The notes: generated by a model not told the origin, from the letters alone. A DNA stretch of 64,000 nt from an uncultured Mycoplasmatota bacterium (GCA_945872435.1 CAMBYP010000001.1:544-64543); one strand, 5' to 3'. Counted from the first letter of the stretch, positions 14,546-61,076 are shown. Program-made: numbers and translations.

Positions 14546-16066
14546 TTGAATCAAAAATATCGTGCAGGTATTTATATTAGACTTTCTAGAGAAGATGAAA
14601 AAGAAGAAAAAAATGTCGATAGTGAAAGTGTTAAAAATCAACGTAATTTACTTATGAATTATATAAAAGAACATGATTATTTTTTTTATAAGGAATATGT
14701 TGATGATGGATATAGTGGTTCTAATTTTGATCGCCCAGCGTTTCAAGCATTAATTACGGATATTGAAAATAAAAAAATTAATATGGTAATTGTAAAAGAT
14801 TTATCGCGATTAGGAAGAAATAATATAGAAACAAATGAATATATAGAAAGATATTTTCCCAAACACAGCATTCGTTTTATTGCTATTTTAGATGATGTAG
14901 ATACTGAAATTGATACTTATGGAAACGAGATGGCACCGTTTAAAGTTTTTGTAAATTCATATTATAACAAAGAAACATCTAAAAAAATTAAAACAACTTT
15001 AAAGAATAAAAAAAAGGGCGGGTTATTTACAGGATGGAAAGCACCATATGGTTATCAAAAAGATCCTAGTAACCCTTATCATTTAATTATTGATAAAAAA
15101 GTAGAACCAGTCGTAAAAAAAATATTTGAACTTGCTAAAAATGGAAATAGTTCTACCAAAATTGCATCTATTTTATCTAAACGAAAAATTCCTAATCCTA
15201 GTAATTATGCTAATTTAAATCAAACATCTGTAAATTCATGGTGTCCTAGAACCATTGATGATATGTTAACAAATCAAACTTATATCGGTAATTTAACCCA
15301 AGGAAGAAGAAAAAAAATATATGGAATGAAATTAGAAATTAGAACGAAACAAGAAGATTGGATTATTGTACACAATACACATGAAGCAATCATAGATTTA
15401 AAAACGTTTGAAGCAGTTCAAAAAGTAAAACAGCATATTACTAAAAAATCGACAAACAATTATTTATTTTCTGGTTTTTTAATATGTAAAGAATGCGGCC
15501 ATTCATTGAGTATTATAAAAAATAAAAATAGAAAACAAGTATATACGTCTTGTAATTATTATCGAAAACATAGTAAATTACATGTTTGTACACCACATAC
15601 TATGAATTATAAACAGTTAGAATCAAAAATACTTACTACTTTAAATAATCTCTTGATAACTAACATTGATAAAAATAAATTAATTCATAAACTGCAATAT
15701 TTAGATCACAAACATAATTCATGTTGTAACTTATGTAAAAATTTAAATCAAGAAAAAAATAAGTTAATTGTTTTAGAAAATCAACAAGATCAATTATACT
15801 TAGATTTTAAACAAAACTTGATTTCATTACAACAATATATAAGATTGAAAAAAGAGATAGAAGAAAAAAATATGATACAACAAAAAATTATACAACAATT
15901 AAAAGACAAAATAAAAAAGAATAAAACTACTTTAGAATATGAAAAAATCATTGATCAATATTTATCATTAAAAAAAATGAATAAAGTATTTTTTTCTAAT
16001 TTGATTGATAGAATTGAAATTGATAAAAATAAAAATGTTGATATTTATTTTCGATTTCATATATAG
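14546..16066 (+). CDS. large serine recombinase (resolvase/invertase N-domain + recombinase domain + zinc ribbon + coiled coil)
   Basis: N-terminal YIRLSREDE with the catalytic Ser in the RLSR context. 506 aa. C-terminal Cys cluster (CKECGH...C..C) and coiled coil. TTG start with a GAGGTG RBS. The gene ends 44 bp inside the right island boundary. Confidence 0.85.
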   Translation: MNQKYRAGIYIRLSREDEKEEKNVDSESVKNQRNLLMNYIKEHDYFFYKEYVDDGYSGSNFDRPAFQALITDIENKKINMVIVKDLSRLGRNNIETNEYIERYFPKHSIRFIAILDDVDTEIDTYGNEMAPFKVFVNSYYNKETSKKIKTTLKNKKKGGLFTGWKAPYGYQKDPSNPYHLIIDKKVEPVVKKIFELAKNGNSSTKIASILSKRKIPNPSNYANLNQTSVNSWCPRTIDDMLTNQTYIGNLTQGRRKKIYGMKLEIRTKQEDWIIVHNTHEAIIDLKTFEAVQKVKQHITKKSTNNYLFSGFLICKECGHSLSIIKNKNRKQVYTSCNYYRKHSKLHVCTPHTMNYKQLESKILTTLNNLLITNIDKNKLIHKLQYLDHKHNSCCNLCKNLNQEKNKLIVLENQQDQLYLDFKQNLISLQQYIRLKKEIEEKNMIQQKIIQQLKDKIKKNKTTLEYEKIIDQYLSLKKMNKVFFSNLIDRIEIDKNKNVDIYFRFHI

Positions 16067-36575: not shown

Positions 36576-38120
36576 ATGAATATTTTTGGTTTATTAGAGT
36601 CTTGGATAAATGATCATACAACTACAGATCATTTTGTTTTTTCTAGTAATATGAGTAGTGAAAAAATAGAAAAAACAATCTATGAATATTTGGAAGATCA
36701 TTTGAATCGTTATCAGCAATTAAGTGAAGAAATACAAGAAAATAAACGTAAGATGCAATTTATTCAACAAATATTAAAAAAACCATCTTCTATTTTACTA
36801 CGTTTATCAAAAATGAATGAAAAACAAAGAATGTGGGTTAGTGGTGCGATTTCAGCGAGTGATTTAAATATTATTCAACATGTGATATGTCCTACAACTT
36901 CATTAAGATGTAACTCTAGTCAGTCTGAAGTACAGTTTGCAATTGACATGGCAAAACAGTTAAATATTTTACTTCAAAAAATTAATATTAAACAAGATGC
37001 TTTACAACAGATTGTGAGAAGTGATTATTGTAATATTTCACAAATAACTGCGATTTCTCAACATTTAAAAAATAATGAGTTATATCGTTTTTCTAAAAAA
37101 CAACAAGAAATGATACGACAAGTATTAAATACTTATGAAGATGGGGAAGAATTATTAAAAGCAAGTGATCATTTATTTTATTTAGCAGAACAAAAATATC
37201 AAAAAAAACAACAAGAAAAAGAATATTTAAATGTACAATCTAAAATTGTAACTTTAAAAAAGAAAAAAGAAGTAAATATAAAAAAAGAAAACGATAAAAA
37301 TGATCAGTTGTTAGAAAAATTAGAAATAGAAACACCAGTAGAAATAAAGCCAAAAGATTATAAATGCCATTTAGAAGAAGAAAATTATTGGAATTCAATT
37401 AAAACGATTGAACATTTATCACAATTAGAACAATATTTACCAAAATATGATTATTCTAATTATCGTGATATAATGAAATACTTGTTAAAAAAAGTCAAAG
37501 AAGAAATGGATGACTATCTTTTGTTGGTTGATTCAGAATTAGAGGAAGAAAAAGAAGTAATTGATAATCAAATTTCTTTCTTGTCTAATATGTTTGAAAT
37601 ATTAAAAAATCATTTTGTTCAATATTATCATCAATATGATGATTTAGAGCAGGTAAATCATGAATTATCATTTGAAAAAAATCAATTATTTTTTGTTGAA
37701 AAAAAATCTGGAACACCGTATTTACTTTCGGATTTAGAAAGTAATGCTTTTAACAAAGAAAGATTAACTGCAGTAAAAAAACTTTTACTTCAATTACAAC
37801 AAGATACATTTCCTAGAGATGAGAAACATTTTAGAAAATTTAGCAATAATCAAAGAATTACAAAATATTTTAATGTGTATGAATTAAAAGATTATCAAAC
37901 AAGACTGTTGTTTACTTACGTTGGCCCTCATAAAATAGCAGTGATTATGGCATTTTGTAAAAAAACAGATAATTCTGTTTCTATTTTGAATACAGTGTCT
38001 AATCGTATGATTGAGTGTTCTAACAAAATTATGGAATTAAAAGAATGGATTTTAAATGATGAAATGCCTGAAAATTATTTAAAAAAACAAGAAGCATTGG
38101 GAAGACAATTGACGAAATAA
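36576..38120 (+). CDS. hypothetical protein (514 aa), coiled-coil rich, with a C-terminal RelE/ParE-like motif
   Basis: Strong RBS AAAGGGGA. No recognisable family domain. The C-terminal ~90 aa resemble a RelE/ParE beta-core. Confidence 0.45.
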   Translation: MNIFGLLESWINDHTTTDHFVFSSNMSSEKIEKTIYEYLEDHLNRYQQLSEEIQENKRKMQFIQQILKKPSSILLRLSKMNEKQRMWVSGAISASDLNIIQHVICPTTSLRCNSSQSEVQFAIDMAKQLNILLQKINIKQDALQQIVRSDYCNISQITAISQHLKNNELYRFSKKQQEMIRQVLNTYEDGEELLKASDHLFYLAEQKYQKKQQEKEYLNVQSKIVTLKKKKEVNIKKENDKNDQLLEKLEIETPVEIKPKDYKCHLEEENYWNSIKTIEHLSQLEQYLPKYDYSNYRDIMKYLLKKVKEEMDDYLLLVDSELEEEKEVIDNQISFLSNMFEILKNHFVQYYHQYDDLEQVNHELSFEKNQLFFVEKKSGTPYLLSDLESNAFNKERLTAVKKLLLQLQQDTFPRDEKHFRKFSNNQRITKYFNVYELKDYQTRLLFTYVGPHKIAVIMAFCKKTDNSVSILNTVSNRMIECSNKIMELKEWILNDEMPENYLKKQEALGRQLTK

Positions 38121-52547: not shown

Positions 52548-53582
52548 GTGTCACAGAACTTGGATATTAAAAAGAAAAATAAGAATCAGGTTATTAACAT
52601 TATGATATTAGTTGCTGTGACTGGTATTGTATTATATTTTTCATTAAAAGATAATTATCAAATGATTTTGCATGAAATATTTACATTAAATATTTGGTGG
52701 TTACTTTGTGGTATTTTTTTGGTACTGGGATGTTACTATCTTAGAAGTATTTCTCTTTATCATCTAATTCGAAAATTTCATAAACAATATAGTATGAAGA
52801 AAGCTTTTAAACTAACTCTTACTACACAATTTTTAAATGGTGTTACTCCTTTTTCTACAGGTGGACAACCATTTCAAATTTATATTTTGAAAAAAGATGG
52901 TATTCGCTTAGGTGATGGCGCAAATATCATTATGCAAAATTTTATTGTTTATCAAATTGCTTTGGTTCTTTTAGGAATTATTGCGATTACATATAATTTT
53001 ATTTTTCATGTATTTCAAGAATCAGGTCTTTTACGTGATTTAACGACAATTGGTTTTTTAATTAATACATTGGTTACAGTGGGGTTGTTTGTTATTGCAT
53101 TTGCTAAAAAATTTAATCAATTTATTATCAAAAAATTAGTATCTTTGCTATATAAATTGCATATTGTAAAAAATAAAGAAACAACCATGGATAAAATGAG
53201 TGATTCTATTGAAAATTTTCATGATGGTGCAAAACTATTAATGAGTGACCAAAAAAGTTTTGTATATAATATTTTTTTGAATTTTTTATCATTAATTTGT
53301 TTATACTTAGTACCTCTTACTATTGCATATAGTATGGGAGTATTTGATTCTTTTACAGGAATAGAATCCATTGTTTCTAGCGCTTATGTTATGTTAATTG
53401 GAGCATTTGTCCCGATTCCAGGGGGAACAGGTGGTTTAGAATATAGTTATATGGCTTTTTATGGTAATTTCTTAAAAGGCAGTATATTAAATGCAAGTAT
53501 GATTATGTGGAGATTTTTAACTTATTATCTAGGAATGATAATAGGAGCTATTACTTTAAATTTGAAAGAAAGGAAGAAATAA
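52548..53582 (+). CDS. UPF0104/flippase-like (lysylphosphatidylglycerol-synthase TM-region-like) membrane protein
   Basis: GTG start. About 8 TM. This family is usually paired with glycosyltransferases in glycolipid synthesis. Confidence 0.55.
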   Translation: MSQNLDIKKKNKNQVINIMILVAVTGIVLYFSLKDNYQMILHEIFTLNIWWLLCGIFLVLGCYYLRSISLYHLIRKFHKQYSMKKAFKLTLTTQFLNGVTPFSTGGQPFQIYILKKDGIRLGDGANIIMQNFIVYQIALVLLGIIAITYNFIFHVFQESGLLRDLTTIGFLINTLVTVGLFVIAFAKKFNQFIIKKLVSLLYKLHIVKNKETTMDKMSDSIENFHDGAKLLMSDQKSFVYNIFLNFLSLICLYLVPLTIAYSMGVFDSFTGIESIVSSAYVMLIGAFVPIPGGTGGLEYSYMAFYGNFLKGSILNASMIMWRFLTYYLGMIIGAITLNLKERKK

Positions 53583-53583
53583 T

Positions 53584-54825
53584 ATGAGGATTGGAATATT
53601 TACCGATACATATCCACCATATATTAATGGAGTATCTACTAGTATTGTTATGTTACAACATGCGTTAGAAAAATTAGGACATGAAGTATTTGTTGTAACA
53701 GTAAATCCAGAAAATTTAAAATATCAATTTGAAGATGATCATAAAATTATTCGTATTCCTGGTGTTCCCATTGGTATTTATGATTATCGTTTGACTGGAA
53801 TATATCCAATTCGTGCGATAGAAACAATAAAAAAATGGAATTTAGATATTATTCATTCTCATACTGAATTTGGTATTGGTACATTTGCTCGTATTATGGC
53901 AAAACAATTAGATATCCCATTAGTTCATACTTATCATACGATGTATGAAGATTATGTTCATTATATTACGAAAGGATATTTCAAACGTTCTAGTAAAAAA
54001 ATTGTAGAATATTTAACAAAGTTTTACTGTGATAAAACTGCAACAGAATTAATTGTACCAACGAGAAAAACTTATGATTTATTTAAACAAAAGTATAAAT
54101 ATGATAGAAATGTACATATTGTACCAACTGGGATTGAAGTAGAACGTTTTTATGCAGAAAAATTTAAAGAAAAAGATATTCGTTCATTAAGAAAGAAATT
54201 AGGAATTCGAGATAATGAAGATGTAATATTATTTGTAGGAAGACTTGGAGAAGAAAAAAATGTAAATACATTAATTGAAGCACATGTTAGTATTACGAGA
54301 ACGAATCCTAATACCAAGTTATTGATTGTAGGAACAGGACCTGATTTAGATAAATTTAAAGAATTAGCTCGTAAATACGGAGTTAGTAAAGATGTTATAT
54401 TTGCAGGACGAGTTCCATGGGATGAAGTCCCAAAATATTATCAAATTGCTCAAGTATTTGCAACAGCATCAAAAACAGAAACTCAAGGGTTAACAGTTAT
54501 TGAAGCAATGGCAGCTAGTTTACCTGTTGTTGCATATGATGATGATGCATTTAGAGAAGTTGTTGTGGATGGTTTAAATGGACATTTATTTAAAACGAAA
54601 AAAGAATATAAAGATGCCGTAAGAGATATTTTAAATCATCCTGAACTTTATGAGAAAATGTGTAGACAAGCTAGAATTACTGCTGATCAACATTCTTCTA
54701 AATATTTTGCTGAACAAGTATTGAATGTATATAAAACTGCTTTAGGAGGAGATATTCTTCCTAAAAATAGAACATTTCTATCTAAAATGAAAGATGTTGC
54801 TAGAAAGGGATTTTATGGGAAATAA
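53584..54825 (+). CDS. glycosyltransferase family 4 (candidate diacylglycerol glycosyltransferase for glycolipid synthesis)
   Basis: GT-B fold with an EX7E-type motif (ETQGLTVIEAMAASLPVV). RBS AAAGGAAG. Confidence 0.75.
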   Translation: MRIGIFTDTYPPYINGVSTSIVMLQHALEKLGHEVFVVTVNPENLKYQFEDDHKIIRIPGVPIGIYDYRLTGIYPIRAIETIKKWNLDIIHSHTEFGIGTFARIMAKQLDIPLVHTYHTMYEDYVHYITKGYFKRSSKKIVEYLTKFYCDKTATELIVPTRKTYDLFKQKYKYDRNVHIVPTGIEVERFYAEKFKEKDIRSLRKKLGIRDNEDVILFVGRLGEEKNVNTLIEAHVSITRTNPNTKLLIVGTGPDLDKFKELARKYGVSKDVIFAGRVPWDEVPKYYQIAQVFATASKTETQGLTVIEAMAASLPVVAYDDDAFREVVVDGLNGHLFKTKKEYKDAVRDILNHPELYEKMCRQARITADQHSSKYFAEQVLNVYKTALGGDILPKNRTFLSKMKDVARKGFYGK

Positions 54826-55554: not shown

Positions 55555-55561
55555 TTTCGAC
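55555..55561 (-). promoter_or_regulatory. 0A-box-like heptamer (TGTCGAA on the minus strand) in the spo0A upstream region
   Basis: ttcgaca is the reverse complement of the Spo0A consensus TGTCGAA, about 105 bp upstream of the spo0A start. It is a single heptamer match only. Confidence 0.3.
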
Positions 55562-55667
55562 ATAATGTGACAAAACTAGAATATTCTCGCTCTAGCGTAT
55601 AAAATGTAGTCAGGTGTATAATAAAAACATAAGATAAGCAGTACTAAGAGTAGAAAGAGGGATTATA

Positions 55668-56441
55668 ATGAAAGAAATAAAAATATTAATGATTGATGAT
55701 AATAAAAATTTAGTAAATATGATTGGAGAATATTTTAAAGATCACCAAACAATTCATTTAGTAGATGTTGCATATGATGGAAAAGAAGGATTTGACAAAA
55801 TTAAAGAAAATAAAGATGCATATGATGTGATATTACTTGATTTAATTATGCCAAATAAAGATGGAATGTATGTATTAGAAGAAATGAAAAAGAATGATAT
55901 TCATAAAAATGTGATTGTAGAAACAAGTTACAATGCAAGTGAAACCATTCGTCAAGTATCAGAGTATGGAGTGAATTATTTTTTGTTAAAACCATTTGAT
56001 TTAAAAGATTTAGAAAAAAGAATTATGAACTTTTGTACTGATAAAACATTAGAAAGTAAAAATATTGATTTTTACCATAATAACTTGCAAATATCGATTA
56101 CTAAAATTTTACATGAATTAGGAATTCCATCACATATTAAAGGATATCAATATATTCGTGAAGCAATTGGAATCATTTATGAACATCCTGAAGTAATAGG
56201 TGGTATTACAAAAGAATTATACCCAGAATTAGCTACTAAATTTGATACTACTGTTTCTCGTGTAGAAAGAGCAATTCGTCATGCAATAGAAGTTAGTTGG
56301 AACCGCGCTAATTGGTCATTGATGGAAGAAATTTTTGGTAATAGTGTAGATATTGATAAAGCAAAACCAACCAATAGTGAATTTATTGTAACTGTAGCTG
56401 ATAAACTTAGATTAGAATCAAAAAAGATAGGAATTGCATAA
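55668..56441 (+). CDS. spo0A: sporulation master regulator Spo0A (response regulator)
   Basis: Receiver domain with LLDLIMP. The Spo0A-specific C-terminal DNA-binding domain ([32 protein letters not shown]). RBS AGAGGGA. Confidence 0.9.
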
Positions 56442-56455
56442 TTCCTATCTTTTTA
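56424..56455 (+). terminator. intrinsic terminator after spo0A
   Basis: gataggaattgcataattcctatc plus T5. Confidence 0.6.
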
Positions 56456-56498: not shown

Positions 56499-56505
56499 TG
56501 TCGAA
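56499..56505 (+). promoter_or_regulatory. 0A box (TGTCGAA) in the promoter region of the downstream membrane-protein gene
   Basis: Exact TGTCGAA about 20 bp upstream of a TATAAT-like -10 (56524-56529) and about 60 bp from the ATG at 56563. Confidence 0.35.
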
Positions 56506-56562
56506 AAATTGGGGTAATGTATGATATAATGAGTTAGATTATAAAGTATTAGGATGTGAAGT

Positions 56563-57942
56563 ATGAAGAATAAAAGGGTTAGAAATAAAAAAATCTTTTA
56601 TAATGTAGTTATTATTTTTAATATATTATTAATTGTTGGTTTGATTTTATATTATGGTTATCGTCTTGTTTATTTTTATCAATTAGAACATCAAAAACCT
56701 AAAGCAATTAAATACGTACATGAAAAGATAAAGGCTTCAAATGAATTAGTTAGTGAAGGTGATGGCCTTTATTTGGACGATAAAAATCAAGTATTTTATT
56801 TTAAAGGAAAAGTATTAAATAATTATCTATACTATTCTGGAAAAATGTGGAGAGTTATAAAAATAAATCAAGATGGTAGTATGGTTTTAATTTTAAATGA
56901 TGTGATTAGTGCTCTTACTTATGGAAGTAGTAGCAAGTATCAAGATTCGTCATTGCGAGGTTATTTAAATACTATTACAAATCAACCATTCACAGGAATT
57001 TTTGAGCAAACATTGAATGATAAAAATCAATATTTAAAAAAGACAAGTATTTGTATTGATCAAATTTCAAATATTGAAGATATTACTTGTGATAAAAAAG
57101 TAACACTTGATTTTGTAGGTTTATTAAATTTAAGTGATTATCAATTATCAGGAGGAAAGAATGGTTATTTAAATCATCATATTTCTTATTATACAGCAAC
57201 TACTGATAATCATGATCGTTTATATTATGTGCATTCTAAAGGTGGTGTAACACTTACCGATGATTATAAAGAACATAATTATGGAGTAAGACCTACAATT
57301 ACATTAAAGAAAAATATTTCTTATATATCTGGCGATGGTACTGAAACAAATCCATATATTATAGAGCCAAAAGAAGAAAAAACTATGATTTATATTGGAA
57401 ATTATGTATCATATAGCGGATATACTTGGAAAGTAATTTCTAAAGATGATCAAACTTACAAACTAGCAACATCGTCTTTATTAACTGATAAAACAGGACA
57501 GGTCTATATGAGAAATTATGCGACAAAAAATAATTTGTATCAAGTAAAAACTTATGGAAGCTTGGCTTATTATTTAAATACAAATTGGTATCGAACATTG
57601 ATAGATAAAAGTTTAATTGTTGATGGAACTTGGTATACTGGTAATTACCAAATAAATGGTGTTACTGATTATAAAAATATCTATACAGATTCTATTTCTG
57701 CAAAAGTAGGATTATTACATGTTGGAGAATTATATTCTTTAGAACTTCCAAATACTTGGTTAATGACAACAGTAAATGAAGATGATGATATGGTTTATTC
57801 TGTAGATCAAAATGGAAAATATTTTTCTGATATGATTGATAGTGAACATGGAATTAGACCTGCAATTTATATTACAAATCAAATACAAATTGTATCTGGT
57901 ACTGGAGTTTTAAGTGATCCATATGTGATAGGAGGCATGTAA
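56563..57942 (+). CDS. membrane-anchored protein with two tandem ~190 aa repeats, each ending in a G-[VI]-R-P-x-I motif
   Basis: N-terminal TM. The repeats share YSGxxW[RK]VI, YLNT and VGLL..xY motifs, then YGVRPTITLKKN....SGDGTETNPYII and HGIRPAIYITNQ....SGTGVLSDPYVI. Confidence 0.5.
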   Translation: MKNKRVRNKKIFYNVVIIFNILLIVGLILYYGYRLVYFYQLEHQKPKAIKYVHEKIKASNELVSEGDGLYLDDKNQVFYFKGKVLNNYLYYSGKMWRVIKINQDGSMVLILNDVISALTYGSSSKYQDSSLRGYLNTITNQPFTGIFEQTLNDKNQYLKKTSICIDQISNIEDITCDKKVTLDFVGLLNLSDYQLSGGKNGYLNHHISYYTATTDNHDRLYYVHSKGGVTLTDDYKEHNYGVRPTITLKKNISYISGDGTETNPYIIEPKEEKTMIYIGNYVSYSGYTWKVISKDDQTYKLATSSLLTDKTGQVYMRNYATKNNLYQVKTYGSLAYYLNTNWYRTLIDKSLIVDGTWYTGNYQINGVTDYKNIYTDSISAKVGLLHVGELYSLELPNTWLMTTVNEDDDMVYSVDQNGKYFSDMIDSEHGIRPAIYITNQIQIVSGTGVLSDPYVIGGM

Positions 57943-58962
57943 ATGAAAATAAAAAAGAAAAAAAAGACAGCGATTGTGCTTTTGATTTTAGATGTTTGTA
58001 TCATTATTTGTTTCTTTTTAGCATATGGACCTTTTAGTTATTTAAGAGAGTTATATATTACAACTGCTGTGACAACGATGACACATAAATATTTAGCTCG
58101 TACTATTTATACAGAAGATATGATTCAAGATGTATTAGATGGAAATTATGTAAAAGAGTCAGGGGAAAGTACGGATACAAGTGATATTGTCATTGGTGAT
58201 ATTGATGATAGTGGAGAATATGACTCTGTTTATGATGAACAAATTTTAACTAGAGATTCTGAACATCCAGAATACAAATTAATTCCTTTAAAAGGAAGTA
58301 ATTATAAAGGTTATATGGTAGCTATATATGATCCTAGTCGTGTTGAATTAGTTATGACTAATAAGTTAGGAAAAATTGGACAATTTTTACGTGAATTAGT
58401 AGTACAAAATAATGGAATATTAGGTATGAATGCAAGTGGTTTTGTCGATACTAATGAAATGGGAAATGGTGGAGAACCAACGGGAATAGTAATTCAAGAT
58501 GGAAAAGTAATTTGGGATGCTACTAAAACTGGATATTCTGGTGGAATCGCCGGTTTTACCAAAGATAATAAATTATTGTTAACAAAAGGAAGTGCCATGG
58601 ATGCAATTAAAGCAGGAATAGAAGATGCAGTTGAATTTGGTCCATTTTTAATTGTTAATGGAAATGCTGCTGAAATAAAAGGTAATGGTGGATGGGGAAT
58701 AGCCCCTAGAACTGTTTTAGCACAGCGTAAAGATGGAATCGTATTATTTGTAGTAATTGATGGTAGACAGCCAGGATATAGTGTAGGAATTAGTATGGTT
58801 GAACTTACTAAATTATTACAAAGATACAAAGTGCATAATGCAGTAAATCTAGATGGAGGAGCTTCTAGTAGTATTGCAATTGGAAATAAAACAATTACAA
58901 AACCATGTGGATATAGTGCAACAGGTGAAAGAAGAATACCAAATGCTTGGATATTAAAATAA
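57943..58962 (+). CDS. phosphodiester glycosidase family protein (DUF2233-like), membrane-anchored
   Basis: N-terminal TM. The C-terminal domain has GMNASGF and VNLDGGASSS motifs typical of the NAGPA-like phosphodiester glycosidase family. GGAGG RBS. Start overlaps the previous stop. Confidence 0.6.
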   Translation: MKIKKKKKTAIVLLILDVCIIICFFLAYGPFSYLRELYITTAVTTMTHKYLARTIYTEDMIQDVLDGNYVKESGESTDTSDIVIGDIDDSGEYDSVYDEQILTRDSEHPEYKLIPLKGSNYKGYMVAIYDPSRVELVMTNKLGKIGQFLRELVVQNNGILGMNASGFVDTNEMGNGGEPTGIVIQDGKVIWDATKTGYSGGIAGFTKDNKLLLTKGSAMDAIKAGIEDAVEFGPFLIVNGNAAEIKGNGGWGIAPRTVLAQRKDGIVLFVVIDGRQPGYSVGISMVELTKLLQRYKVHNAVNLDGGASSSIAIGNKTITKPCGYSATGERRIPNAWILK

Positions 58963-59118
58963 TAACAACATAATGAAATAAAAAGACTATATTATCTAGT
59001 TTGAAGTTGTAATCAAAAAGAAGCAAAAAAGTATATAACAATATCATGTAAAGAAAAAAATCAACTTTTTAAACGATTGAAATTTGATAAAATGAATCAG
59101 AATAGAAGAGATTTAAAT

Positions 59119-60197
59119 ATGAAAAGTAAAGGATTTACACTAATCGAATTATTAGCTGTTATCGTAATACTAGCCGTAATTGCATTAATTGCAACTCCAC
59201 TGATTATGGGGACAATTACAAAGCCAAAAGAAACGCAATGAAAGATACGGCATATGGAATATTAAAAGCAGGAGAACAATATGCAGGGGAAAAGTTATTG
59301 CTAGCAGAAAATAATTATGCAGGAGAAACAATTGCATTACCAAACCAAGATAAAATTCAATATAAAGGTGGTAACGGGGTAACAGGTGAATTACAAATAT
59401 CAAAAGAAGGAAATCTCGCAATTCAAATTCATAATAATCAATTTTGTGCAATGAAAAATTTTGGAGAAGACGAGGTAACAGTAACAAACTATGATGCAGA
59501 AACATGTAAATTAAATGGATCAAGTGGTGGAGAAAGTAATTTTGGAGGAACAATTGTACCATCCACAGGTGAAGAAAAATACAAAGGAATCGTATACTTA
59601 GATCCAAAAGATTTAACGAAAGAATGTAATGAAGGAAATGCAGTAAGTACAACAGGAACAAAAACAGGATGTATGAAATGGTATATCTATGATGATGAAG
59701 GGGATACATATAAAATGATATTAGATCATAATACAACAGCAAAAGTCGCATGGAATTCATCAAATATAAATACAGAAATGAAAGAAGTAAAAGTGGCATT
59801 AGATACAGATACAGAAGGATGGGTAGGAAGTCCAAGATTAATCACCGCAGATGAGATAGCAAAAATAACAGGAAATACAAGTTTTAATTCAGCATATGCA
59901 ATAATGGCAGGATGGTTCTATTTGGATAGTAATAGTACTGCACAAACAGCTAATTTCAGTAATAAGTCAAAATATGCATGGTTATTTGATAGAACAATTA
60001 ATTGTACAAATTATGGATGTAATATAAATGAAGATAGTACTGTTTATGGGTATTGGACAACTTCATCTGTTTTTAATTCTTCTTCTAGATTATGGTGTGT
60101 CAATTTTAGTGGTGATTTATCAACAATGGATGCTGCTTCTGTACAACCTCGTGGTGTTCGACCAGTGATAACTGTCTTAAAATCTAATTTATCATAA
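59119..60197 (+). pseudogene. type IV pilin-like protein (prepilin-type N-terminal cleavage/methylation domain), frameshifted in a poly-A tract
   Basis: Frame 1 (59119..59241) encodes MKSKG|FTLIELLAVIVILAVIALIA, a class III prepilin signal with G-1, F+1 and E+5. It stops after 40 aa. The globular domain continues in another frame from 59238 (319 aa), ending ...GVRPVITVL. The frame changes at ccaaaag (59224-59230); adding one A would fuse the two. Confidence 0.6.
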
Positions 60198-60229
60198 CAG
60201 ATAGAATTATAAGGCAAAAATAAATAAGA

Positions 60230-60253
60230 AAAAAGACCAATAGGTCTTTTTTT
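60230..60253. terminator. bidirectional intrinsic terminator
   Basis: aaaaagacc aat aggtcttttttt, between the pilin gene and the convergent P-loop gene. Confidence 0.55.
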
Positions 60254-60302: not shown

Positions 60303-61076
60303 TTATCTAGTCTTTATTTTTGGTTTTTGATATTTTTCAATCAGTTGCTCGATAATAAGTCTTAAGTGTTGATTTCTTTTATTATTCCATTGAAAGTCAT
60401 TGTGCATAATTTTTAATTTCCCATCTAATAATCCAGCTTTGTTGAGTGATATATAAGCATCTTGATAAGCCTTTCTATAAATTTCATGATCTTTCGTATT
60501 GTTTTCATCCGCTCTTCTTTTCAATGCTTCATTCATTTGTTGGACAGTTCTCATGATTAATAAGAAGTATTCATCTTCGTTTTGGTGAATTCTTTGATAA
60601 ACTTGTTTTGTTCTATTTTCTTTTGATAATGAAAGTATTTTTGGATTAGAAAATACTTGTGGATCTCTATCTTGAGCAACAATTCCTTTTCTTATAAAAT
60701 AACGAACAATAGATGATTTTCCAGTTCCTTTCGCACCTTCTACAACTATACGAAATGGTTGAACATTTTTTAAAATTGATTCATGCGATTGATAATATAC
60801 AAGGTTTGTTACATCAACAAGGCCTTTTTTATTGGTATTTCTAGTTTGCTCTGGAATAAAGTTTTTTAAATCATTTGTTTGACTTGTTACTGTTAAAAGA
60901 ATCAAATGATGTGGTAATTTATAATAATCAACTGTTATATTTTTATCTTCATCTAAAAAGAAATAACGATTAAAATCAGTTTCTTCTTGTTTGCCAATAT
61001 ATTCAAGTGTCTTTAAGTAACTGTCTATACCTCCTGAACATCCGATTCTAGTTGCAACATATTTTTTTTGATACAT
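60303..61076 (-). CDS. P-loop NTPase, hypothetical (nucleotide kinase-like)
   Basis: Walker A VVEGAKGTGKSS in mid-protein. 257 aa. No further family assignment. Confidence 0.45.
   Translation of the reverse strand: MYQKKYVATRIGCSGGIDSYLKTLEYIGKQEETDFNRYFFLDEDKNITVDYYKLPHHLILLTVTSQTNDLKNFIPEQTRNTNKKGLVDVTNLVYYQSHESILKNVQPFRIVVEGAKGTGKSSIVRYFIRKGIVAQDRDPQVFSNPKILSLSKENRTKQVYQRIHQNEDEYFLLIMRTVQQMNEALKRRADENNTKDHEIYRKAYQDAYISLNKAGLLDGKLKIMHNDFQWNNKRNQHLRLIIEQLIEKYQKPKIKTR

Follow-up and report, generated by a model that had tools for sequence, protein, structure and literature searches.

The NAGPA family (PF09992, also DUF2233) includes the human 'uncovering enzyme' and proteins of known structure such as 3ohg, 6ozd and 5h3k. 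A DGGGS loop, including its aspartate (D286 in the human enzyme), is essential for NAGPA catalysis (PMC13474241), and NAGPA proteins are often fused to carbohydrate- or wall-binding domains (PMC11488536; Lipocone preprint). DUF6273 (PF19789) is a domain with a C-type-lectin-like fold and a receptor-binding role (PMC10743442); it occurs in phage 'tentaclins' and in targets of diversity-generating retroelements (DGRs), and in Thomasclavelia ramosa the IgA protease (PDB 9qa6) begins with a domain described as DUF6273 (PMC12402451). Here, both families are encoded side by side in a 64,000-nt stretch of DNA from an uncultured Mycoplasmatota bacterium (GCA_945872435.1, CAMBYP010000001.1:544-64543; hereafter the window, with a GC content of 27.9%). 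A membrane-anchored protein of 459 aa with two DUF6273 domains is followed by a membrane-anchored NAGPA protein of 339 aa. An earlier note on the window had joined these two genes to a third, pilin-like one and had read all three as a Spo0A-controlled, pilus-like or adhesion module. The conserved unit is instead two genes, one encoding a transmembrane (TM) helix plus two DUF6273 domains and the other a TM helix plus NAGPA, and not three. Its features in the window are as follows.

56563..57942, plus strand: 459-aa open reading frame (ORF) with two DUF6273 domains
56746..57366, plus strand: DUF6273 domain 1, aa ~62-268 (hhalign against domain 2)
57382..57939, plus strand: DUF6273 domain 2, aa ~274-459
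57930..57935, plus strand: AGGAGG, Shine-Dalgarno sequence of the NAGPA gene, inside the last codons of the 459-aa gene
57943..58962, plus strand: 339-aa ORF, NAGPA/PF09992 (DUF2233)
58852..58866, plus strand: catalytic-loop equivalent D304-G-G-A-S308 (NLDGGASS), aligned to NLDGGGS

With the NAGPA alignment as a query against species-representative genomes, 420 genomes with a relative were found, all of them metagenome-assembled genomes (MAGs) of uncultured Bacilli, 'Tenericutes' or Mycoplasmatota, and the best 80 loci were compared. The tandem-DUF6273 gene lies immediately upstream of NAGPA in 69 of these 80 species-level loci, and in every neighbourhood inspected NAGPA follows it by abutting it, overlapping it or leaving a gap of at most 12 nt. 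In the window, the TAA of the 459-aa gene abuts the ATG of the NAGPA gene. Judged from the nucleotide sequence, the window pair is translationally coupled, and the two proteins would thus be made together. The three-gene cluster of the earlier note is not co-conserved, an outcome that the note itself had listed as refuting: only 1 of the 80 loci has a pilin-type DUF6273 gene at a distance of 7 kb or less from the pair, and in the sister species the pilin gene is missing at the matching position.

The 459-aa protein is bitopic and consists of a basic N-terminus, one TM helix, a conserved juxtamembrane stretch (YGYRLVYFYQ) and the two DUF6273 domains; its residues 31-40 match the core motifs in conservation. 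Each domain closes with G-[VI]-R-P-x-I, which is followed by an SGxGTxxxPYxI tail. The two tandem repeats of ~190 aa that had been proposed are real. When an alignment of 50 orthologues (A1) was cut into two halves and the resulting profiles were compared by hhalign, they matched over 165 columns (99.8% probability, E 6.2e-28) that span the proposed YSGxxWR[IV]I, YLNT and VGLL motifs, whereas pairwise BLASTP of the repeats covers the last 57 aa alone (E 3e-6). Cys164 and Cys176 in domain 1 are the sole two cysteines of the protein and are invariant in the alignment.

The earlier note could not assign the repeat to a named family. However, the whole protein scores 27.5 bits against DUF6273 (E 3.4e-6), above the Pfam gathering threshold of 23.5 bits, although the isolated repeats stay under it (16.7 and 19.9 bits). 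Moreover, five of the eight longer relatives scanned match DUF6273 at 44-78 bits, PF19789 is precomputed for many orthologues, and one public orthologue record is already titled 'DUF6273 domain-containing protein'. Residues 399-437 map to positions 132-170 of the 172 in the DUF6273 profile; the Pfam model therefore ends with the GIRPAIYI (G-[VI]-R-P-x-I) strand. The repeat is DUF6273, a known, functionally uncharacterised binding domain. The protein has 420 homologues (word index), and its family comprises 760 representative clusters at E <= 1e-30, almost all of 430-470 aa.

An AlphaFold2 (AF2) model of the 459-aa protein, with a predicted local distance difference test score (pLDDT) of 91.0 and a predicted template modelling score (pTM) of 0.84, has a single significant fold match in the PDB, the T. 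ramosa IgA peptidase 9qa6 (E 2.4e-6), and it also resembles gut-phage 'DUF6273 domain-containing' proteins in a BFVD fold search (E down to 5e-11). A profile search of PDB sequences with the tandem-DUF6273 family returned TRAPPC20 as its sole match (E 0.034), which is due to chance. The 459-aa protein shares with 9qa6 and with the phage tentaclins and DGR targets the Pfam family, the C-terminal G-[VI]-R-P strand and the Foldseek fold, and like them it is extracellular and a presumed ligand binder. It differs from them in carrying two tandem copies of the domain on a short N-terminal membrane anchor, in having no Ig/Fn3 stalk, peptidase or DGR, and in being encoded by a chromosomal gene that is set in a syntenic housekeeping context, with a NAGPA gene as its obligate partner. 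Elsewhere, two long proteins, P0389 (4905 aa) and P0461 (3528 aa), contain 11-13 stretches that match the tandem-DUF6273 profile; therefore, DUF6273 appears to be used also in very long repetitive surface proteins.

The assignment of the second gene to the phosphodiester-glycosidase family is borne out by its match to NAGPA/PF09992, which reaches 135.2 bits (E 3.4e-39; gathering threshold 25 bits) and covers profile positions 2-168 of 169. The 339-aa protein is bitopic as well: its N-terminus is basic and precedes a single TM helix, next to which lies a conserved juxtamembrane stretch. Both proteins are thus membrane-anchored, as had been proposed, and the anchor is N-terminal. A profile of six pair partners places NLDGGASS opposite NLDGGGS, the loop present in vertebrate NAGPA and in bacterial 6ozd; D304, G305, G306 and S308 are invariant in these six partners. 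Matches among PDB sequences are vertebrate NAGPA and bacterial DUF2233 structures. The protein has 6345 NAGPA homologues, one public record of which is titled 'exopolysaccharide biosynthesis protein'. NCBIfam holds no model matching either the 459-aa or the 339-aa protein.

Compared with the human enzyme and the bacterial structures, the 339-aa protein shares the catalytic domain, the Asp-Gly-Gly-x-Ser loop, and the RT and DG motifs. Human NAGPA is also membrane-tethered, but its anchor is C-terminal, whereas that of the 339-aa protein is N-terminal, and the latter has neither an EGF stalk nor a propeptide. In contrast to the NAGPA fusions, the binding module is here placed on a separate, coupled polypeptide.

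On balance, the two genes probably encode a membrane-tethered lectin-plus-glycosidase pair that acts on glycosyl-phosphodiester bonds of a surface glycopolymer. The first product is a type-II membrane protein displaying two DUF6273 domains outside the cell, and the second a type-II membrane protein whose NAGPA domain keeps the catalytic Asp-Gly-Gly-x-Ser loop. Acting as a membrane-tethered complex, the DUF6273 domains would bind a cell-surface glycopolymer, presumably through its glycans, and the NAGPA domain would cleave sugar-1-phosphate (glycosyl-phosphodiester) linkages in the bound polymer. The pair would thereby represent a split-gene form of the common layout in which NAGPA is fused to carbohydrate- or wall-binding domains, and it would serve routine envelope remodelling in uncultured, Mollicutes-like gut Bacilli (Candidatus Aphodocola and relatives). 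Candidate substrates are teichoic-acid-like polymers, glycolipid-anchored polymers or LCP-type GlcNAc-1-P linkages. A much bolder version of this proposal, which we regard as quite unlikely, sees in the pair a dedicated bacterial 'uncovering' machine that is core to an uncultured, genome-reduced, Bacilli/Mollicutes-like lineage. Its lectin subunit would select a surface glycopolymer or glycolipid, its NAGPA subunit would remove sugar-1-phosphate caps or linkages, and in some clades it would have come under Spo0A control by conversion of a -35 element into a 0A box. If true, this lineage would possess a prokaryotic equivalent of the step that uncovers mannose-6-phosphate.

Several observations weigh against a lectin-guided glycosidase pair. 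NAGPA lacks a DUF6273 partner in 11 of the 80 loci, 8 of which show it in a CotH-VTC-DUF4956-NAGPA operon; NAGPA is therefore not strictly dependent on this partner. No DUF6273-NAGPA fusion occurs among the 8 long relatives or the 120 best NAGPA homologues, and there is thus no Rosetta-stone support for a physical complex. Position 307 in the catalytic loop is Ala or Asn in the pair partners instead of the third Gly of the vertebrate enzyme. The C-type-lectin fold matches of the 459-aa model are weak (E >= 0.036, probability <= 0.14), and the lectin assignment thus rests mainly on the literature. Finally, the literature searched contained no biochemical data on bacterial members of either family and nothing experimental on the substrate of bacterial NAGPA/DUF2233, teichoic acid included. 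Going by MAG accession prefixes, the pair is also present in the genomes behind at least 6 of the 11 loci without a DUF6273 partner. The operon in question contains a second NAGPA paralogue of 525-617 aa, which closes a series of genes for an LTD+Fn3_assoc+CotH kinase protein, a VTC-domain protein and DUF4956 (L048:1951-7984); the operon with this longer paralogue is also found in L033, L045, L051, L060, L063, L073 and L076.

The novelty of the locus is modest: it lies in the pairing, as all parts come from known families and domain-level names are already public. The conserved, coupled pairing nevertheless yields a testable hypothesis for the functionally uncharacterised DUF6273 and bacterial NAGPA/DUF2233 families, namely that a lectin guides the cleavage of glycosyl-phosphodiester bonds on the cell surface. 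It spans hundreds of species of uncultured gut Bacilli, and the pair of ectodomains is tractable for biochemistry. In addition, the annotation of the locus is corrected in two respects, since the pilin-like gene is a pseudogene and the adjacency of spo0A is a matter of synteny. The features that bear on the latter are listed below.

55556..55562, minus strand: TGTCGAA (read on the minus strand), an exact 0A box ahead of spo0A and probably a site of autoregulation
55668..56441, plus strand: spo0A (Pfam Spo0A_C, E 8.6e-40; Response_reg, E 7.2e-22)
56421..56455, plus strand: hairpin and U-run over the spo0A stop codon, likely terminator (RNA fold -16.4 kcal/mol)
56499..56505, plus strand: TGTCGAA, 0A-box consensus, overlapping a -35-like hexamer and ending 19 nt upstream of TATAAT
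56501..56530, plus strand: sigma-A-type promoter TCGAAA-18 nt-TATAAT with an extended -10 (TGa), 10/12 matches

The hairpin at the spo0A stop codon has a z-score of -7.1, and none of 200 shuffled sequences folds as well, although a scan for consensus terminators did not list it. Since this hairpin is followed by a sigma-A-type promoter, the 459-aa gene is likely to form its own transcription unit. The 0A-box motif clearly appears to be functional in this lineage, because 19 of the 23 spo0A genes in related loci carry an exact copy within 250 nt upstream. In about 24-25 of the 80 loci, spo0A is found no more than 7 kb from the pair, as part of a pgk-GT4-tpiA-spo0A block (GT4, glycosyltransferase family 4). 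Its adjacency looks like inherited synteny (pgk-GT4-tpiA-spo0A-...-pair-dus) and not like a regulatory arrangement. In this glycolytic block, the GT4 gene is similar to that for alpha-monoglucosyldiacylglycerol (MGlcDAG) synthase, and dagK and gpmI come next in some genomes. In three related loci (L019, L023 and L025), a gene for a lipoprotein of ~150 aa with a signal peptide and a Cys lipobox lies between spo0A and the tandem-DUF6273 gene.

The third gene of the proposed cluster comprises the following features.

59119..60197, plus strand: modular type IV pilin pseudogene, frame broken at about 59223
59238..60197, plus strand: 319-aa ORF, pilin-like body
60229..60252, minus strand: terminator-like hairpin between the pilin pseudogene and a convergent P-loop ATPase gene

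The pseudogene is laid out as a prepilin leader with an alpha-1 helix, a small pilin head, a linker and a C-terminal lectin-type module that resembles DUF6273 and Lcl_C. The leader, in the frame 59077..59241, matches N_methyl (E 1.7e-9) and contains a class III signal (G|FTLIE) and a hydrophobic alpha-1 helix; the ATG at 59119 is the likely start, picked by analogy to an intact relative of 359 aa (P0122) that carries TIGR02532. The pilin-type family has 2835 homologues, a typical member being 345-360 aa long with an N_methyl leader, and its profile matches MshA, geopilin and PilE in the PDB (E 1e-9 to 1e-7). The earlier note had seen one terminal module in the repeats and in the pilin-like C-terminus, and had set profile comparison and structure prediction beforehand as tests. 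In hhalign, the profile of the pilin C-terminus aligns over only 47 columns with repeat 1 (E 6e-11) and with repeat 2 (E 5.5e-6), and BLASTP of the pilin C-terminus against the repeats gives E 3e-4 over 48 aa. Moreover, the AF2 model of the 319-aa ORF (pLDDT 90.4) has 9qa6 as its single significant PDB match (E 1.4e-4), as does the model of the 459-aa protein. The shared terminal module, of a surface, ligand-binding type, is thus upheld.

A Pfam scan of the window's pilin module gave no DUF6273 match, and Lcl_C matched at E 0.23-0.38. Against DUF6273, the pilin homologues reach 17.8 bits (P0122) and 23.2 bits (P0124), just under its threshold, and PF19789 is precomputed for about a third of the pilin homologues listed. 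Across these comparisons, the module weakly matches the end of the Lcl_C/DUF1566 (PF07603) model, with which it shares a '...G-V-R-P/C-V' terminal strand; with E-values of 0.03-0.8 and scores that fall far short of the gathering cutoff (34.9), the resemblance is one at superfamily level, and the module is not a member of the family. DUF1566 proteins are also among weak fold matches, and DUF6273 and Lcl_C/DUF1566 presumably belong to one Pfam clan. The modular pilins of Streptococcus sanguinis (PilB with a vWA module; PilC with a ConA-like lectin module) share with the window pilin the class III signal, the pilin head, the linker and a C-terminal binding module. In contrast to these, the window module is DUF6273/Lcl_C-like, and the copy is a pseudogene outside any pil locus.

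Three other explanations of the locus have to be set against the lectin-plus-glycosidase pair, the first of which concerns Spo0A. In Bacillus subtilis, Spo0A-activated sigma-A promoters of the spoIIG/spoIIE type carry a 0A box over the -35 region. By analogy, phosphorylated Spo0A bound at the -35 box would activate the lectin/NAGPA operon when sporulation or stationary phase begins. The box reported upstream of the -10 is indeed present, and the window likewise combines an exact TGTCGAA over a poor -35 with a good extended -10. It is conserved at -64 in the window, L010 and L012-L014, which form the immediate clade; between the window and L010, the stretch from box to ATG is ~90% conserved, and this conservation starts exactly at the box, with the DNA upstream diverged or deleted. 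In L065, a distant locus with 29% protein identity, a box lies 18 nt from the -10 in the same geometry, and exact boxes occur upstream of the orthologues at 0.41 per kb against a background of 0.088 per kb, to which the abundance of boxes before spo0A itself can be added. However, the window contains TGTCGAA 5 times when 4.92 occurrences are expected by chance, and the exact box is absent from 63 of the 69 orthologous promoters, three of which have a one-mismatch TGNCGAA. Two of the positives (L037 and L039) were discounted since both boxes lie within the coding end of gpmI, and three further positives represent one clade. In L081, spo0A is directly upstream of the pair, yet there is no box; in L004, the pair starts 7 nt after gpmI, and other loci have plain TTGAAA or TTTACA -35 elements before the pair, which implies constitutive expression. 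Moreover, the box is one base from a TTGAAA-type -35, so promoter function alone can explain its conservation, and it is a single box that, unlike the spoIIG/spoIIE type, has no second site upstream. Spo0A control of the pair in this clade is possible, but it is not a general property, and a Spo0A-activated surface module is on the whole an unlikely account of the locus.

A three-gene type IV pilus or adhesion module, in which the pilin would show a lectin module on a filament, with the two membrane proteins as accessory adhesins or as factors in processing, is very improbable and, at this locus, largely refuted. The class III signal and alpha-1 helix are genuine, the C-terminal module is predicted to be well folded and to share a superfamily with the repeats, lectin-bearing modular pilins such as PilC of S. 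sanguinis are established adhesins (PMC9934059), and the pilin-type family is very large in the lineage. Nevertheless, the gene, which had been taken for one with an intact product, is a pseudogene in this species. Leader and 319-aa body are in different frames owing to a 1-nt deletion (AAAGGCC to AAAGCC) at about 59223, as seen against an intact, 83%-identical relative (P0122 in L092). The frameshift is common to 3 strains, two of which (L093 and L094) add a second 1-nt deletion and a CAA-to-TAA stop; in addition, the Shine-Dalgarno sequence is GAAGAG in the window as against GGAGG in the intact relative. Members of the species' pilin cluster are 319, 248, 229 or 91 aa long, with none above 319 aa among the 15 members listed (40 of 42 read), and no intact close match (>= 90%) to the window gene is found among the homologues listed. 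The gene neighbourhood of the intact copy (83% identity) is unrelated to this one, and a motif scan of the window found no other prepilin-leader gene, the pilus assembly genes themselves not having been searched for. Its lesions and its rarity beside the pair mark the third gene as a recent insertion, unrelated to the pair, of a modular type IV pilin that is now decaying; its grafted module comes from the same fold superfamily. Equally remote is a phage origin, by which the DUF6273 genes would be receptor-binding or DGR-diversified proteins and the locus a prophage remnant or the cargo of a conflict system. DUF6273 is typical of gut-phage receptor-binding proteins and DGR targets, the best BFVD fold matches are phage proteins, and there is a weak PHROG match to a 'Hoc-like' protein. 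The DUF6273 protein also evolves faster than its NAGPA partner (70% against 90% identity to the sister species; Spo0A, 96-97%). However, the pair lies in conserved housekeeping synteny across at least 69 species, and no phage genes flank it; prophage origin was rejected on the evidence of synteny. DGR diversification was rejected as well, since the window has no template/variable repeat pair or any other DNA repeat, and no single hypervariable, ligand-binding hairpin stood out when one was sought in the alignment of the tandem-DUF6273 family.

The lectin-plus-glycosidase pair lies in a housekeeping gene context. Its upstream neighbours in the window are genes for a flippase-like protein and MGlcDAG synthase, and tpiA; downstream are dus and an RDD-domain gene, which in related loci are followed by a class II aminoacyl-tRNA synthetase gene and ackA. 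NCBI gives the name 'Candidatus Aphodocola sp.' (taxon Bacilli incertae sedis) to one member of the identical cluster of the 459-aa protein. The flippase-like and synthase genes form a glycolipid-synthesis pair just upstream of tpiA-spo0A (52548-54825). The first encodes an MprF-type membrane protein, and the product of the second has its best match in the Acholeplasma-type alpha-monoglucosyldiacylglycerol synthase (NF049988, E 1.6e-91, below the model cutoff).

The one complete genome of the lineage, OZ006994.1 (1.26 Mb), is that of the sister species. At the position of the pilin gene it contains a 50-aa ORF (L012:8265-8417) that consists of a TM helix plus '...KGTGTMQDPYVIE'. This ORF has the G-[ST]-G-[ST]-x-x-x-P-Y-x-I tail found after each DUF6273 domain in the 459-aa protein; the tail may therefore be a separable module. 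Elsewhere in the window, a 514-aa ORF (36576-38120) has no Pfam match at E <= 1e-5, and a large serine recombinase (Resolvase + Recombinase + Zn_ribbon_recom) encoded at 14546-16066 may mark an integrated mobile element. Convergent to the pair, on the minus strand at 60303-61076, lies the gene for a 257-aa P-loop protein with weak matches to AAA_18 and Sll1717-family ATPases, which is kept in the close relatives L001, L011, L012 and L015.

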